Shown in pieces: positions 42,755-58,090 of a stretch of DNA of 64,000 nt. The notes beneath the pieces are model-generated. The model was given only the letters and a program-made list of their open reading frames with translations. It was not told where the DNA came from and did not search any database. This DNA is from Escherichia phage ALITA. How positions within the stretch are numbered: the first letter of the stretch is position 1; every line of letters starts with the position of its first letter. The stretch is from sequence record PP359570. One strand, written 5' to 3'. The translations under genes and the position numbers were made by a program.

Positions 42755-45529
42755 TTAGTTTACCAGTTTATTTATATCTGGTAAAAGATTTATTTCACCT
42801 AAGAAATCACCTTCACCTTCCTCTAGCCAACTCTCATATGCTTGTGCATGATTATAGTTACCATCAAAAGAATCTGCAACAAATTTTTCTACAGTTTTTC
42901 GAGATGTGCCAGCACCAAATACACCAAGTTTAATACCATTGATCGGTAAAGTGGTGCTTGTGGGTACTTTCTCTGTTGCAACACGGTTGATATCTATAAT
43001 CTCCTGTACGGTTGTGTTCCATTGTAAGCATTTAACACAACGGGTATGCGCTACATACAGTAGGTTTCGCTCTGCCTCTTCCAGTCCTACCCATTCACCA
43101 GTCTTTTTATCATAGTTGGAAGGAAAATCATTAGCAACAATAACCTGATCCCACTCCAAACCTTTAGACTTGTGTGCTGTAGTCAGTGTGACTTTTGCTG
43201 TAGGAGAATTTCTATGCGTTCTAAGTGTATGTGCTATAGTGTTTGCCTTACCAGAAACTACGATGTTTAACAAGCGTTTAGCATCTGGATCAGCCTCTGC
43301 ACACTCAACAAATTCATCCCAGTCTGCGTAAGGTAATACAGTTTCATGTTTTACTTTCTCAATATCTCCTCTCCGAAGAGCATTAACACTATCTACCATA
43401 GAGATAAAATCCCTGGTATCTACGTTAATAATAATTTCTTCCCCATCTGCAATACGATCCATTGCCTCCATAAGCAAGGTTAAATTCTTGCGAAAGATGA
43501 TAGTGTAAGGTTTTGTATAGTCTACAACATCTGATTTGTAGCTACCTACTACAGTATCAAAGCCTTTACCAACCAAAGGATGACGCAAAGGTTCTTTATC
43601 GCTTAAAATCATATTGGCAATGTTTGCCACTTTGGGGCCAAAACGGAAGCAAGCAGTTAATGGAAGTTCTGCCCCATACTTAGCTGTTTCAATCATCATA
43701 TTAGAGCTACCTCTAAATTGATAAATGCAGTTGTGGCTAAGAATTTCATTGCCAAAGAAGTTAGCAGTATCCTCTACTTCAATATCATAATAGATACCCT
43801 CACTATCTACAATGTCCACAATCTCTTCTGCCGTTACAGTATCACCATCTTTTACCAACACAGACATGCCTTTAAACAAACCCGCTGCCGGAATTAAGTT
43901 ATATTTGGCACTGTTCACAGAGGACATGCATTCTTTTAAAGATGCAAACGGAACTATTTCAAGGATCTTTTGTGCAAAACTCAATGCTTCACGATAAGAA
44001 TTGAAATATTTACGTACACGGTAACGACCTTCCAATTTAGCAGCACTTACGCTTACACCTGCTTTAATCAGTGAAGAATAGATCGGCATTTCACTTTCTG
44101 TCCACTCAAAACTAACTTGTGTTCCTTTACAACCTTGTGCTCGCAAAGTCACTGTTAGCATTTTTCTTTCATCTACTGCACAATTGATGCTGTGCCAGTG
44201 TGGATAAGCAAAATGATAATCTTTATCCTCTAAAAGTTTAAAACCATTTTGTCCGAATTGTTCAAAGATGTTATTGATCCTTTCTTGATTAATGCCGCGT
44301 GAACTTGCTTCAAATACACAAGTAGGAATGCCATATTGTAAACTGTAAGCCATTTCTTTTTCCATAGCAGCTTCACGGTTTTCAACAATATCCAACACCC
44401 ATAATTTCTGTGCTTTTTCAGAACGTGTACGTTGCCCCAGTTTAGAAAAACCTTCTTTATCATCGAATTTGTTAGTGATCCCTACTCGGAAACCTAAATC
44501 TTTCCTCCACATTAGGTATACCACCATCTGATCATCTTTCAGAACATAGGATGAAGCCCAAATACGATGGTTATGTGTCATATCTAAAGTTTTACCTGTG
44601 GCAGTAATAATATTCCTACCTTTTGTACGTGTAGATAAAGTCTTATTTGTTACTTTTCTAAATGTAACTTTACCATTAGAATAAGACTCTACCTTATCAC
44701 CGATTTGCAGGTCTTTCATTGTAACCTGACCATTCTCGGTATTAAGTACCGTGTTTTCCGACACACATTGGAATTCATCGCCCACTACCACAATTTGTTT
44801 TGCAGATTTAGCATTTCGCAGAATAGACAAGAATGCAGGGTTAACATCCTGGAATTCATCACCAAAAATAATATCATAACCAAGATCAGCACCAGACAAT
44901 TCAAACAATTTTACATAGGTGTCATGCGTCATTAAAGTATCTGTGTTAGGATCGATGCGCTCTCGCCACAATTGTTTTGCATACTTAACTACTTCTGTAA
45001 TTAGTTTGTGTTCGTTAATACCTTTTCTTTTAATATCTGCAAGATGTACACTAGGAAAATGTTTACGGCTGATAAAAGGATCATCCGAAAATTCAAACTT
45101 ACCTACGGTTTGCTTGATCATTAAACCGATCATAGCACGAGTTAAAAGTGTTTTACCTCGTTTATCAATAAGATTATTAATCTTAAATTTCTTTGCTATC
45201 TCACTACCTGTACCTGCAACGTTAACATACTGTCCTTCTGGTCGTGACAGTTTTGCACGTAAACGATGATCCAGGAATTGATAGCAAATAGAATGCAATG
45301 TACGGCATTCTACATTTAGTGGCATCTTACGTCGTGCTTCTTCTGCCATGCTTTTATTGAAAGCTAAGTAAAGAATGCGATCTTCTGTACTGTTAGCCAG
45401 CAAATAAAGTGTTGACGTTTTGCCTGATCCAGATTTAGCTTGGATAGTTAAAAAGCGATGGTCTGGAAAAGCCTCCTTAATAGCTGTTTGCTCTTCTGTT
45501 GGAGTGAAGCTCAACTCTTTCTTAGCCAT
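42755..45529 (-). CDS. UvrD/Rep-family SF1 helicase interrupted by an intein
   Basis: Walker A AKSGSGKTS; motif II IFGDEFQDVN; motif III split as VVVGDEFQ | intein | CIYQFRGS; start set at ATG with SD (MAKKELS). Confidence 0.85.
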   Translation of the reverse strand: MAKKELSFTPTEEQTAIKEAFPDHRFLTIQAKSGSGKTSTLYLLANSTEDRILYLAFNKSMAEEARRKMPLNVECRTLHSICYQFLDHRLRAKLSRPEGQYVNVAGTGSEIAKKFKINNLIDKRGKTLLTRAMIGLMIKQTVGKFEFSDDPFISRKHFPSVHLADIKRKGINEHKLITEVVKYAKQLWRERIDPNTDTLMTHDTYVKLFELSGADLGYDIIFGDEFQDVNPAFLSILRNAKSAKQIVVVGDEFQCVSENTVLNTENGQVTMKDLQIGDKVESYSNGKVTFRKVTNKTLSTRTKGRNIITATGKTLDMTHNHRIWASSYVLKDDQMVVYLMWRKDLGFRVGITNKFDDKEGFSKLGQRTRSEKAQKLWVLDIVENREAAMEKEMAYSLQYGIPTCVFEASSRGINQERINNIFEQFGQNGFKLLEDKDYHFAYPHWHSINCAVDERKMLTVTLRAQGCKGTQVSFEWTESEMPIYSSLIKAGVSVSAAKLEGRYRVRKYFNSYREALSFAQKILEIVPFASLKECMSSVNSAKYNLIPAAGLFKGMSVLVKDGDTVTAEEIVDIVDSEGIYYDIEVEDTANFFGNEILSHNCIYQFRGSSNMMIETAKYGAELPLTACFRFGPKVANIANMILSDKEPLRHPLVGKGFDTVVGSYKSDVVDYTKPYTIIFRKNLTLLMEAMDRIADGEEIIINVDTRDFISMVDSVNALRRGDIEKVKHETVLPYADWDEFVECAEADPDAKRLLNIVVSGKANTIAHTLRTHRNSPTAKVTLTTAHKSKGLEWDQVIVANDFPSNYDKKTGEWVGLEEAERNLLYVAHTRCVKCLQWNTTVQEIIDINRVATEKVPTSTTLPINGIKLGVFGAGTSRKTVEKFVADSFDGNYNHAQAYESWLEEGEGDFLGEINLLPDINKLVN
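43730..44767 (-). mobile_element. Intein (~346 aa) inserted in helicase motif III, with a central putative homing-endonuclease region
   Basis: N-terminal Cys (CVSENTVL), block B TxxH (LDMTHNH), C-terminal ...FFGNEILSHN followed by extein Cys. Confidence 0.7.
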
Positions 45530-54328: not shown

Positions 54329-55735
54329 ATGCCAGCACCAAAATCATGGGAACAATATAAAGAAGAATTAACACCCCTTGCTAAAAATCACAACATTCAG
54401 ATTCTGGGTTATATTGGTGAATGGAAAGGGAGCAAGACTAAACTTAAGCTATCTTGCTCTGATCATGGGGAGTGGGAAAGTACCATAATCAATAGCTTTA
54501 AAACTAAAGGCGGTAAATGTTGCCCCGATTGCAATGGTCGTAGAAAAGTAACAGAAGAAAAGGAATGTATTTCCCTTGTTGATGTTGCTAAAGAAAGAGG
54601 GTTTACTTTTATAGGTCTTGCCGAAGAGTGGCGAGGTGTGCTAACAAAAATCCGCATAGTTTGCCCTAAACATGGAGAGTGGAACACCACGACCATTAGT
54701 GGTTTTAGGAAGGGACGTGGTTGTCCGGCATGTGCAAGTAATAAGCCGTTAACATGGGAAACAGAATTACCGATCTTGGAAGAGATAGCACAGAAGAAGG
54801 GGTATCAGGTGTTAGGGTACGTGGGAGAATGGAAAGGGATTGATACAAAACTTGATTTGTTGTGTCACTGTGGTAACAGATGGGATACTACAAGTATTAA
54901 CAGTTTTAAACATGATCATGGTTGTCCTTTATGTGGGTATGAGAATACAAGGAAGGCACAAACAATACCCGACGATCAACATATTGCAGATTTCTTTTCT
55001 ACAGGGAAATTTAAGGAAGGCACTATCTTTACCAATACAGGGAAACGTAGTTGTAGTAAAAACAAGGACATTATCTGGATGATCGAATGTCCTGTTTGCT
55101 CTCATGATGAGTATGTGCAAGCAGGTGTATGTGATGGTAAGTTTTATATGACACGTAGCGATCTTAAGGCTGGACACTTGCCCTGCCGCTGTGCAACTAA
55201 CTCTCATTATACAGAAAATCAGATTACCTACAGGGTAAAAAAGGAAGTAGAAGGGAGAGGGTATGTCTGGGTAGGTTGGATCGGTAAACCGTCTATAAGA
55301 CTGGGTAATTTTAAATATCTTTGTCTTGTTCATGGGGAACAAATTGGTAGTGCTTATCGCTTACTATATCAGGATAATGGTTGTCCACAATGTGCAGGTC
55401 ATAGTCAGCAGCAATTGTATGTTAATGTTGTTAAAGATAATGGTATTATAGTTGCTCTTAAGTTTGGTATATCTAAAGATAGTGCTAGGAGATTAAACAT
55501 TCAAAATAGGCGTAATATGTTTTTTATGGAGCGTATTTGTTTATATGATTTTAGTACAGTGAAGCAGTGTAAGGCTGCTGAAAGAGCTATAAAGAAAAAA
55601 TTAAAAACTGGTATCTTAACAGCAAGAGAGTTGAAAGATGGTTATACAGAAACAGTAAGTGTTTCTGATTTGGAAAATCTTCAAAAAATTATTACACAAT
55701 ATGGTGGCAAATTAGTATACAGTAAGGAGGTGTAA
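54329..55735 (+). CDS. Zinc-ribbon repeat protein with C-terminal T5orf172/GIY-YIG-like domain
   Basis: 468 aa; four or more repeats of C..HGEW...F...GCP.C; C-terminal LYVNVVKDNGIIVALKFGIS...RRL block. Confidence 0.55.
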   Translation: MPAPKSWEQYKEELTPLAKNHNIQILGYIGEWKGSKTKLKLSCSDHGEWESTIINSFKTKGGKCCPDCNGRRKVTEEKECISLVDVAKERGFTFIGLAEEWRGVLTKIRIVCPKHGEWNTTTISGFRKGRGCPACASNKPLTWETELPILEEIAQKKGYQVLGYVGEWKGIDTKLDLLCHCGNRWDTTSINSFKHDHGCPLCGYENTRKAQTIPDDQHIADFFSTGKFKEGTIFTNTGKRSCSKNKDIIWMIECPVCSHDEYVQAGVCDGKFYMTRSDLKAGHLPCRCATNSHYTENQITYRVKKEVEGRGYVWVGWIGKPSIRLGNFKYLCLVHGEQIGSAYRLLYQDNGCPQCAGHSQQQLYVNVVKDNGIIVALKFGISKDSARRLNIQNRRNMFFMERICLYDFSTVKQCKAAERAIKKKLKTGILTARELKDGYTETVSVSDLENLQKIITQYGGKLVYSKEV

Positions 55736-56287
55736 ATGCGGATTACTGATAAGTATGTGTTCTTCTTCTCGGCAAAAGATGAATTTAGCAACTGGTATCT
55801 ATCATCTTTTATTGAACCTTTAGCTCCCAAGTATAATAATTCTATTACAAGTTCTGTTGAATTTACTTGTGTGGAACAATATATGATGTGGAGAAAAGCA
55901 TGTTTGTTTTATGATTACAGTATTGCATCTTCTATTTTAACCGGAGATCTAAGATATACAGGAGAAAAAGAACAAGCATATTATAAACGACTAGGCAGAT
56001 TAGTTAAAGATTATGATGAAGATACCTGGGCTTCTTTACGGGAGAAGATTGTCAAGCGTGGTTTGTATCTTAAATACACACAAAATGAAGATCTCAAAAA
56101 TAAACTTATCGCTTACGCAGATAAGGAGTTCGTAGAGGCAAGCCCCTATGATTCTATTTATGGTATCAAAATGGGGATGTGGGATCGGGACGTGGAAAAT
56201 AAGGATTGTTGGAAAGGGCAAAATCTTTTAGGAAAATGGCATACAGACCTTGCTGTTTATCTAAAATCACAATCTGATATTTCCTGA
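55736..56287 (+). CDS. NADAR (YbiA/DUF1768)-family protein
   Basis: 183 aa; strong SD AAGGAGG; blocks FFFSAKDEFSNW, VEQYMMWRKACLF, LGRLV, FVEASPYDSIYGIKMG alignable to E. coli YbiA. Confidence 0.75.
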   Translation: MRITDKYVFFFSAKDEFSNWYLSSFIEPLAPKYNNSITSSVEFTCVEQYMMWRKACLFYDYSIASSILTGDLRYTGEKEQAYYKRLGRLVKDYDEDTWASLREKIVKRGLYLKYTQNEDLKNKLIAYADKEFVEASPYDSIYGIKMGMWDRDVENKDCWKGQNLLGKWHTDLAVYLKSQSDIS

Positions 56288-56506
56288 TATTTTGAAAATT
56301 TTTATTTTTATAAAAAGGGGTGTGGGTTTCATGTACGGAAATCCACCCTCTGAATAATATATCCAGAGTAAGTAGTATTCTGTACTCTGTTAATAAAGTA
56401 TTTAATTTGTTTGTTGGATTATGGTGGCTGATCTTTAAAAGGCATACTATCTCTTAACTACTACTTATAACAAAACAGTAAAATCCTTTTTATAAAAGTA
56501 CAAAAT

Positions 56507-56703
56507 TATTTAAAGTTTTTACAGATTTTCGGGTACAAATTTTGAAAATGAAAAGTTCAAGTTTGGTCAAAATTATTTAAAGTTTTTGTACGTATTTCTG
56601 TCCAGATTTTGAAAATGAAAACTTCAATTTTTTAAAAATTCCCCAGTTTATTTAAAGTTTTTTTGCCTTTTTCCGTAGAAAAATCAAAAATGAAAAGTTC
56701 AAT
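56507..56703. repeat. Three tandem direct repeats (~55-60 bp) in noncoding region
   Basis: Each unit starts TTATTTAAAGTTTTT and ends GAAAATGAAAAGTTCAA with a variable centre. Confidence 0.8.
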
Positions 56704-56724
56704 TTCGTGTTTTTATAGGTGTGT

Positions 56725-56841
56725 TAATGAGAATCATTTTCGTTTGTAAATGAGAATCATTATCATTTAACTATGTAAGTGATAATCATTCTCAGTAAGA
56801 GAATGAGAATCATTAGCAAATGAGAATTTTTCTCATTTACA
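56725..56841. promoter_or_regulatory. Cluster of five palindromic sites with Fur-box-like core (candidate repressor sites or origin iterons)
   Basis: AATGAGAATCATT variants; AATGAGAATCATTATCATT and GTGATAATCATTCTCAG; last copy is perfect inverted repeat AAATGAGAA-TTT-TTCTCATTT. Confidence 0.6.
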
Positions 56842-57098
56842 GAATAACGCGCAGGGGCGGTGTTTGTCTCGCGCTCCCGTGTCCCCTCGCCATACAATAA
56901 GAATAGCATAACCAATAACAAAAGCAAGCGATTATTTTTATCTTTACATTTCTTTACAAATTTATTTTAGACGAGCTACCGGCGATCAACCTTCCAACCA
57001 GTGCCCCCTGGTATGTTAGCCCCGCCTTTACGCCGTGGGGTGGCGTTTCCTCTTCTGTATGTAAAACAGTATAAGCCCGATCCCTGGGCTTGTCAAGA

Positions 57099-57365
57099 TT
57101 ATTTTTTGTTTTCTTGCCAGGATAGGACACCTAACCAAAAATACATGTCGCCCCGCGCCCCTGGTGGGATCTTGCTTTCCCCGCCGCCACTGCAAGCCCA
57201 TAAATAACCATCAGCGAACGGATCAAAGTGATCTATCTCTTCCACCTTATGATCGCCCAGGTTGAGAACGGTTTCAACCTTTAAGCCCGTTGCGCTTGCT
57301 ACCTGGTGCACCGTGCCGCCTTGCCAGCCCAGTGAGTGCATGAGATGTAAAGAAGTATTTGTCAT
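57099..57365 (-). CDS. Hypothetical protein, divergent from early array, GC-rich codon usage
   Basis: 88-aa ORF; hairpin AGCCCAGGGATCGGGCT downstream. Confidence 0.4.
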   Translation of the reverse strand: MTNTSLHLMHSLGWQGGTVHQVASATGLKVETVLNLGDHKVEEIDHFDPFADGYLWACSGGGESKIPPGARGDMYFWLGVLSWQENKK

Positions 57366-57736
57366 GGTATCGCCCTTTCTTTGTTGTGCGCCCTGGTTGG
57401 CGCGGTAGAAAGATGATAGCCGTTTCCTTCATATATAGCAAGCAAAAAAGAAATGAAAAAAAGATTAAAAAATGGTTGACGTTCCTCACCTGGTAGCGTA
57501 GTATTCATCTTGTCGAGGGGGGCAAGACACAACGACAATAAACAATAGGCGGGTGCAATGCAAGACGGGCAAAGGTGAGGATCTCCACAATCCACCGTCA
57601 CAATAACATTACTTATAAAAGGTTGATAACGATGATCAAGAAAGAAAATAGCTTGACGGTTGGAACGATTAACGCTATCATTCTTGCCGTTCCATTTTGG
57701 ATTGTAGTTGCGGTTATTATTTTCTAAAAAAATATT

Positions 57737-57764
57737 CTTGACAACGTTTTTTAATCTGATAAGA
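57737..57764 (+). promoter_or_regulatory. Sigma70-like promoter
   Basis: TTGACA-16-TAAGAT, followed by leader hairpin 57775-57794. Confidence 0.6.
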
Positions 57765-57817
57765 TGTATCACATAGGGCGGCAATAGTGCCGCTCATAAC
57801 AGAAGAGAGAAATAATC

Positions 57818-58090
57818 ATGGCATCATATAGCGCATCAATGATTGTAAAGGGTATCACTGGTAAACCTATGCGCGGTGGCGGATCTTTCGCTAACATCAA
57901 TATTGATGGACGTTTATCCCTGGACGCAGCGATCACAGTGGCACGGGAAACATTTAAAAAAGAATGTAATTTCAATAAACAAGATTATCTCGGTTTTGCT
58001 ATTGAAAAAACCGCGCGCTTTGTGGATTATAAAAGCCCGAAAATGATCGACACTACACTAAAAGCGCAAGATGTAGCGTTTTTGCTTTAA
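57818..58090 (+). CDS. Hypothetical early protein
   Basis: 90 aa; promoter-hairpin-SD unit upstream. Confidence 0.55.
   Translation: MASYSASMIVKGITGKPMRGGGSFANINIDGRLSLDAAITVARETFKKECNFNKQDYLGFAIEKTARFVDYKSPKMIDTTLKAQDVAFLL

Follow-up and report, generated by a model that had tools for sequence, protein, structure and literature searches.

Five closely spaced palindromic sites lie in an untranslated control region of Escherichia phage ALITA, and they raise the question of whether they are bound by the Fur protein of the host and, if so, what such binding would do on phage DNA. The window analysed here comprises 64,000 nucleotides (64 kb) of sequence record PP359570, and coordinates refer to this window unless stated otherwise. 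The best match to positions 56300-57100 among the 150 phage records matched was Escherichia phage vB_vPM_PD114 (99.0%), and many Justusliebigvirus genomes (phi92-like, Stephanstirmvirinae) matched the same segment at 95-98%; the window belongs to a phi92-like phage of the genus Justusliebigvirus. Phages of this genus are virulent myoviruses of approximately 146-150 kb. The sites are located between the NADAR gene, which ends at 56287, and the next gene, which starts at 57818, in an untranslated stretch flanked on both sides by small plus-strand genes of early type arranged in a long run (Table 1). From left to right, this stretch contains three direct repeats, five boxes, a GC-rich block, a leftward promoter, an 88-aa ORF, and rightward promoters, and the GC content of the local stretch with the repeats and the array is 26%. 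Records of related phages annotate the array as a mere 'repeat_region' or as a spurious 'hypothetical protein'. The rV5 genome paper marks a 'non-coding' box to which no function is assigned (PMC3606486) and which may correspond to this region. A 468-aa protein (54329-55735), encoded two genes ahead of the untranslated region on its upstream side, contains four CapR-homology domains and a weak T5orf172 match (PHROG 'endonuclease'); HNH endonuclease genes occupy the equivalent place in phages FBKp34 and SSE121, and the gene for the 468-aa protein is likely a mobile nuclease gene beside the untranslated region.

Table 1. Elements of the untranslated control region and of the box array, with window coordinates and matrix scores.
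Feature	Position	Strand	Remarks
Untranslated control region	56288-57817		1.5 kb, among plus-strand early-type genes
Three direct repeats of ~70 bp, iteron-like	56487-56705		Start-to-start spacing 67 and 75 bp
Secondary site of box 1	56720-56738		10.3 bits
Fur-like box 1, AATGAGAATCATTTTCGTT	56726-56744		23.9 bits; 9-1-9; core TGAGAAT-C-ATTTTCG
Secondary site of box 2	56743-56761		11.3 bits
Fur-like box 2, AATGAGAATCATTATCATT	56749-56767		28.2 bits; top site of the window
Secondary site of box 3	56772-56790		12.3 bits
Fur-like box 3, AGTGATAATCATTCTCAGT	56778-56796		18.5 bits
Secondary site of box 4	56796-56814		14.5 bits
Fur-like box 4, AATGAGAATCATTAGCAAA	56802-56820		20.6 bits
Fur-like box 5, AATGAGAATTTTTCTCATT	56819-56837		22.2 bits; closest to the conserved block; perfect 9-3-9 inverted repeat at 56818-56838
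Conserved GC-rich non-coding block	56842-57060		Invariant GGTGTTTGTCTCGCG, CTACCGGCGAT, AAGGT, and others
Leftward sigma70-type promoter	57068-57096	-	TTGACA-17-TATACT; 11/12 consensus matches
88-aa leftward ORF	57099-57365	-	Matches phrog_19316 (unknown function)
Rightward promoters restarting the gene series	57653-57765	+	Promoter scan

The initial annotation had described five palindromic sites at 56725-56841 that share a core and resemble the Fur box, and the sequence agreed with this description with small corrections only. The common core, TGAGAATCATT, which is reportedly also that of the primary aerobactin iucA operator (de Lorenzo et al. 1987), is exact at 56728, 56751, and 56804 and inexact in sites 3 and 5. 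Site 3 contains the core with one mismatch on either strand (TGATAATCATT on the plus strand and TGAGAATGATT on the minus strand), and the version in site 5, TGAGAATTTTT, differs from it at two positions. Five matches to the core with at most one mismatch occur in the 64-kb window, all of them inside 56728-56814. Two sites that had been named individually, box 2 and GTGATAATCATTCTCAG (56779-56795), were found as stated, and so was the perfect inverted repeat AAATGAGAA-TTT-TTCTCATTT in box 5. The centres of the five main sites, which are separate from each other, are spaced by 23, 29, 24, and 17 bp, and an inverted-repeat finder revealed a dense net of mutually complementary arms over 56722-56841.

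A scan with a Fur position weight matrix had been proposed as a check on these sites. A symmetric, 19-bp matrix was derived from 16 footprinted or gel-shifted E. coli K-12 Fur sites (fecI, fecA, entC, fepD-entS, fepA-fes, fhuF, cirA, sodA, ryhB, fhuA, exbB, gpmA, yoeA, tonB, fur, and fepB), with site coordinates from Chen et al. 2007 (PMC2189734) and promoter sequences from NC_000913.3. This matrix closely reproduced published information values (27.8 bits for gpmA and 28.0 for yoeA, compared with 27.4 published). The five sites were the top five positions of the 64-kb window, at 28.2, 23.9, 22.2, 20.6, and 18.5 bits, and the runner-up scored 16.5 bits; the 16 known K-12 sites span 11.5-28.0 bits, and box 2 equals the best training sites, yoeA and gpmA. 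The phage sites match the Fur box both as the 19-bp inverted repeat GATAATGATAATCATTATC and as the 7-1-7 motif TGATAAT-N-ATTATCA, with scores in the range of proven sites. Because the five sites score like proven host sites, the objection that they might score no better than random AT-rich sequence, named in the initial annotation as one that would undo its reading, does not hold.

A chance resemblance could have been expected from a repeat-rich region with 26% GC, and shuffled sequences give the measure of it. Dinucleotide-preserving shuffles of the window (n = 200) contained a mean of 0.23 sites of at least 18 bits, with a maximum of 2, and shuffles of the local 26%-GC stretch (n = 2000) contained a mean of 0.0115 such sites, in comparison with the five observed. 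The clustering of the sites is far beyond chance and, in addition, high-scoring boxes are conserved across six genera (see below). Chance resemblance is effectively refuted by these data.

The array also shows the internal organization of Fur-bound clusters. Fur clusters consist of overlapping sites offset by 6 (or 3) bp, in arrays of hexamers (Chen et al. 2007, PMC2189734), and boxes 1-4 are each accompanied by an overlapping secondary site located exactly 6 bp upstream, with scores of 10.3-14.5 bits. The multi-box operators of iucA, fhuF, fecI, and entC have in common with the phage array the 19-bp 9-1-9/7-1-7 motif of NAT(A/T)AT hexamers and the overlapping sites at 6-bp offsets, on which Fur dimers are placed side by side. 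On the other hand, the phage array is made of separate main sites in a virulent phage, and its summed score per 120 bp (161.8 bits) is about twice that of the densest of the twelve K-12 Fur-regulated loci sampled (fhuF, 79.5 bits). A motif obtained de novo by EM from the phage arrays alone correlated with the E. coli matrix at one offset (r = 0.914) and at no other offset above r = 0.41, and the same procedure selected site pairs 6 bp apart. In Fur-DNA crystal structures, base readout involves one G and one or two T's per half-site, and recognition also uses the narrow minor-groove shape of AT-rich DNA (PMC4506495). All five boxes retain these contacted bases, and TGA...TCA (or GCA) is present in each of them. 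Given the scores, the 6-bp signature, and the kept contact bases, the sites are first-rate Fur boxes by sequence.

One position departs from the host pattern. At position 4 of the heptamer, G is the preferred base in the phage (TGAGAAT), and in host sites this position is T in 54% and G in 19% of cases; the TGAGAAT/ATTCTCA half-site is also present in strong host operators (ryhB, fhuA, gpmA, exbB, and fecI). Possible reasons for this preference are the avoidance of the -10-like sequence GATAAT in boxes located outside promoters, or a different binder. Because of the preference for G, a protein of similar specificity other than Fur has to be considered, and it is weighed below together with the distribution of the motif.

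The initial annotation had gone further in proposing that host Fur, through these sites, might tie early transcription to iron status. The first part, host Fur as the binder, is strongly supported in silico by the scores, the 6-bp signature, and the correlation of the two motifs, and the link to early transcription is not supported as stated. Host Fur operators overlap the -35/-10 elements of the regulated gene. In contrast, the phage boxes have no associated promoter or gene: a promoter scan of both strands found no sigma70-like promoter within 56725-56841, and no overlap with the -35/-10 of an iron-regulated gene was observed; within the 1.5-kb untranslated region, the array leads into no gene on either side. 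A classical early-gene operator is therefore unsupported. A rightward candidate promoter over the proximal box in Vequintavirinae (TTGAAT-18-CAGAAT) was rejected as a conserved element, as the second base of its '-10' varies among A, G, and T and its -35 is missing in the window phage.

Transcription may nevertheless reach the array from the right. The array lies ~220 nt downstream of the leftward promoter, which is a strong one, the predicted transcript would cross the GC-rich block first, and a terminator scan found no intrinsic terminator between the promoter and the array. The -35/-10 pair is readable at the same place, with a different spacer, in FBKp34, locus L044, SSE121, pEa55, and FV3. 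In an alignment spanning two subfamilies, the mean column identity of the GC-rich block is 75% and long runs are invariant, which is unusual for non-coding DNA; the indels of the block are not multiples of 3, and no convincing coding signal was found. No Rfam family matched the block or the palindromes at gathering score, and miRNA/snoRNA-type matches obtained at the E-value threshold were discarded as spurious, since they were caused by the palindromes. A structured RNA on either strand was also rejected (covariation terms of +0.21 and -0.83 kcal/mol, folding z-score of -1.5). The block contains at 56942-56961 a tandem 10-bp direct repeat, CTTTACATTT CTTTACAAAT, that is kept in all aligned lineages and resembles the tandem half-site of a winged-helix response regulator, or two -35-like hexamers. 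The 88-aa ORF is labelled hypothetical in phages inny and alia and has no Pfam family, and SSE121 has another small ORF at its position. The approximately 35 N-terminal residues of the 88-aa product are conserved in FBKp34 and look helix-turn-helix-like by eye, and a hairpin is found right after the stop codon of this ORF, inside the spacer of the leftward promoter.

The same architecture is conserved well beyond the genus. A distant search found the region in 181 records, and 359 records were obtained with Salmonella phage SSE121 as query; the carriers are Justusliebigvirus, Phapecoctavirus, Klebsiella FBKp34-like phages, and Vequintavirinae (genera Seunavirus, Vequintavirus, Mydovirus, and Henunavirus). 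Within the rV5 supergroup, six genera share the layout of repeats, boxes, conserved block, and leftward promoter, with one to five boxes, and the order of repeats, boxes, and block is identical in every genome inspected. The three direct repeats lie immediately to the left of the array, and exactly three repeats, spaced by 65-75 bp, occur at the same position in SSE121, FV3, Mydo, and pEa_SNUABM_55. The repeats partly share sequence with those of the relatives (TTTTNAAAATNGAAAAC ... GTATTTTCTGTC); a phage protein presumably binds to them, and they may belong to an origin or to a packaging element. SSE121, EspYZU08, and pEa_SNUABM_55 have a single box, either AATGAGAATCATTCTCATT (26.7 bits) or a one-base variant of it; Mydo and FV3 have two each (counted by eye, with no matrix score), FBKp34 three, phAPEC8 and L044 four, and the window phage five. 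In FV3, a short module of box plus block is present in two copies.

Within this layout, the sequence of the boxes changes and their quality does not. Homologous boxes vary at several positions between genera while high scores persist, as in the boxes at offset -99 of different genera, AATGATAATGATTCGCATT (24.6 bits), AATGATAATCATTATCGTT (26.7), and AATGAGAATGGTTCTCGTT (21.1). The box 1 homologue of phage alia, TATGATAATCATTCTCATT, has several substitutions and the score is held (25.8 bits). The comparison covered 13 genomes, and in 10 of them the start of the last box is 41 nt ahead of the invariant GTGTTTGTCTCGCG. The proximal box of alia (~4520-4540 of L002), inny, and L064 has lost one nucleotide of its central run of T's (AAATGAGAA-TT-TTCTCATTT), which leaves a perfect palindrome but destroys the 7-1-7 register of Fur; this box is therefore dispensable for Fur binding in the genus. 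The boxes of phAPEC8, L044, and FBKp34 are spaced by 28-29 bp, a spacing that suggests growth of the array by tandem duplication. Furthermore, phage alia (MN850632) has in the same early-gene run a second untranslated gap of 1.8 kb (88121-89940 of the record, L271 4122-5941), beyond the limits of the window, in which a further four strong boxes score 25.8, 18.4, 18.9/18.3, and 27.8 bits at 88.3-89.5 kb.

Such a number of boxes could serve to titrate Fur. According to this explanation, the main rival, the boxes would have no target in cis and, once the phage DNA has been replicated to hundreds of copies, would soak up Fur, derepress host iron uptake, and in this way feed the di-iron ribonucleotide reductase. 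In the Fur titration assay, one box on a multicopy plasmid is sufficient, and by the same logic about ten strong boxes on a replicating genome would relieve the repression of host iron uptake. None of the 12 sampled host loci is as dense as the array, which has about nine sites when primary and secondary ones are counted, to which at least four strong boxes in the second gap are added; box number expands from one to five, by duplications of roughly 29 bp, in some lineages; and the alia genome encodes a class Ia ribonucleotide reductase (NrdA and NrdB) and a glutaredoxin. However, the proximal box holds a fixed distance to the conserved block in all genera, which argues for a role in cis rather than for titration, and Vequintavirinae get by with one or two boxes. 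In T5, moreover, the array is carried on first-step-transfer DNA and host DNA is degraded early (PMC/bioRxiv abstracts), so that derepression of host genes cannot be the purpose there. We consider titration unlikely as the main function, although it could coexist with an effect in cis.

The motif is not restricted to the rV5 supergroup. The distant search also matched T5-like phages, exactly over the array: T5_ev219 and VAH1 have an isolated perfect palindrome (26.7 bits) together with four to six arrayed boxes that score 18-28 bits. All of these are located in the untranslated region that closes the left terminal repeat (L003 2150-2700 in T5_ev219 and L005 2100-2650 in VAH1), where they adjoin DnaA boxes and a family of 13-bp repeats, and the element is present in 557 T5-like records. 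This part of the genome is known in T5 as Repeat Region 3, which belongs to the injection-stop region and comprises the DRC repeats and the palindromes palE-palJ. Davison considered the function of these elements impossible to guess and did not mention Fur (bioRxiv 10.1101/866236). Repeat Region 3 is similar to the region of the window in having an array of the same motif, within a large untranslated and repeat-rich region, beside other direct repeats; it also has the isolated perfect palindrome. In contrast to the T5 region, a terminal repeat with paired DnaA boxes beside the palindromes, the region of the phage array shows no sign of a terminal repeat and no DnaA box (TTWTNCACA) in 56288-57817. 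Since it has no DnaA box and its flanks are unrelated to those of T5, the resemblance lies at the level of the motif. Elsewhere in the window, a perfect DnaA box, TTATCCACA (minus strand, 44199-44207), adjoins a 15.6-bit Fur-like site at 44212-44230 within a minus-strand ORF of 937 aa; this pair (44199-44230) is probably a coincidence.

A still broader distribution was observed in viral contigs, in which perfect palindromes of the Fur-box type were strongly enriched. At least 120 IMG/VR contigs contain the exact 19-mer AATGAGAATCATTCTCATT, with at least 69 groups of unrelated flanks, whose GC contents range from 27 to 65%, and the canonical AATGATAATCATTATCATT occurs in 82 contigs, compared with none for a composition-matched scrambled palindrome (loci L070-L187 and L188-L267; for example L123 5560-5730, L133 1810-1888, and L202 10812-11322). 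In several flank groups the palindrome is placed ~10 nt downstream of a perfect sigma70 promoter, that is, in operator position. Some of these palindromes form arrays of three copies at 30-bp spacing, and one contig end has seven copies, five of them at 89-bp spacing. When 5,426 E. coli genomes were searched by BLAST with the 136-bp array, only seven weak matches of 26-32 nt were obtained, mostly on small plasmids, and the search was uninformative.

This distribution bears on the identity of the binder. The initial annotation had offered operators for a phage repressor as an alternative to Fur, and in a wider form the boxes would be operators for a phage-encoded protein with a specificity resembling that of Fur, whether an early repressor or an origin or packaging protein. 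The bias towards TGAGAAT instead of the TGATAAT preferred by the host, the proximity of the iteron-like repeats and of a small conserved ORF, and the operator position of the palindrome in some unrelated contigs would all be accommodated by such a protein. On the contrary, T5-like and rV5-like phages, which are unrelated, have the motif in common, the exact palindrome recurs among so many unrelated flanks over a wide range of GC contents, SSE121 keeps it without the 88-aa ORF, and the searches of Pfam and PHROGs found no Fur-like or other DNA-binding family in the neighbouring ORFs. The presence of the motif in unrelated T5-like phages and in at least 69 contig groups points to a conserved host factor, and its breadth is easier to reconcile with a host protein as conserved as Fur than with a phage protein confined to one lineage. 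Phage operators are thus the less likely alternative, and we regard them as distinctly improbable.

A further explanation dispenses with Fur and considers the palindromes as structural elements, either hairpin terminators of leftward transcription or cruciform or unwinding elements of an origin or packaging site. Box 5 is indeed a perfect inverted repeat closing a conserved transcribed block, and origin-like features (iterons, 26% GC, and a promoter) are near. However, the stems would be weak, with nine A/U-rich pairs including two G-C and no proper U tract, and the terminator scan found no terminator at the boxes; boxes 1-4 are imperfect, and their conserved positions follow the Fur matrix and not maximal pairing, with a 1-nt indel in the centre being tolerated in some genomes. 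As regards an origin, the region is devoid of DnaA boxes, and the cumulative GC-skew minimum, which was rejected as an origin marker for the array, is at ~51 kb, at a point of divergent transcription away from it. We therefore consider purely structural palindromes very unlikely.

The explanation that we favour, with a probability of roughly 0.55, is that the five sites are genuine high-affinity sites for host Fur-Fe2+ that would act in cis as an iron-dependent barrier. We infer from the sequence that Fur-Fe2+ would occupy them in iron-replete cells; each main site would take one Fur dimer, boxes 1-4 would take a second one on the overlapping site, so that a stretch of 112 bp would be covered by Fur when iron is plentiful and cleared of it when the cell is starved of iron. 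A barrier in cis is favoured because no promoter or gene is attached to the array, and its nature is our guess. In a roadblock version, RNA polymerase moving leftward would pass the conserved block and meet the array ~220 nt on, where a row of Fur dimers, five to nine of them, would halt or reduce transcription ahead of the three repeats; in iron starvation Fur would be lost and leftward transcription would get through to the repeats. We know of no established mechanism of roadblocking by Fur. In another version, alternative or additional to the first, the array would bound the spread of H-NS from the 26%-GC repeat DNA.

The second version has a relative in the host. Upstream of ftnA, several distal Fur boxes act as an H-NS antagonist (Nandal et al. 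2010, as summarized in PMC3788343). In that account, the ftnA array resembles the phage array in having several boxes distal to any promoter within AT-rich DNA, and Fur occupies DNA instead of occluding RNA polymerase, as would be the case in the phage. The phage array has multiple boxes, flanks with 26% GC, and promoters located 230-900 bp away. In contrast to ftnA as described there, no target promoter was identified for the phage array, and H-NS is presumed to bind the phage repeats on the strength of their 26% GC.

Precedents exist for Fur boxes as such, for operators with several of them, for distal antirepressor arrays, and, in temperate phages, for boxes at cargo-gene promoters. The stx1 promoter carries a Fur box on a temperate phage. 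Lambdoid phages with sitABCD likewise have a host Fur site on phage DNA (PMC6969025). These temperate-phage sites are single boxes at promoters of cargo genes, whereas the array described here is gene-less and belongs to a virulent phage. In our literature search, prophage sitABCD was the only case of this kind, and Fur boxes had not been described for T5-like or rV5-like phages; nor had a conserved gene-less array of them been described for any untranslated control region of a virulent phage, that of the T5 injection stop included. As Fur boxes the sites are ordinary, and it is their context that is unexpected and broadly conserved. A more general proposal, which we regard as improbable at present, is that Fur-box arrays are a widespread and hitherto unrecognized cis-element of virulent phages (rV5 supergroup, T5-like phages, and many uncultured lineages), in which Fur would be an iron-gated structural protein on phage DNA that controls a step at the level of DNA, for instance the firing of an origin, packaging, or the first-step transfer stop of T5, and not gene repression.

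If Fur occupies these boxes, a large group of virulent coliphages in therapeutic use (phi92-, phAPEC8-, rV5-, and PVP-SE1-like) would sense or exploit the iron of the host. The iron status of laboratory media is sharply different from that of the gut or of an infection site, where iron is limiting, and this could affect the performance of the phages in vivo. Occupancy by Fur would also provide a testable handle on the 'non-coding' box of rV5-like phages and on the palindromes arrayed in the T5 injection-stop region, a puzzle that has stood open since the 1960s, and host iron sensing may then reach phage DNA in a way that has not been described.
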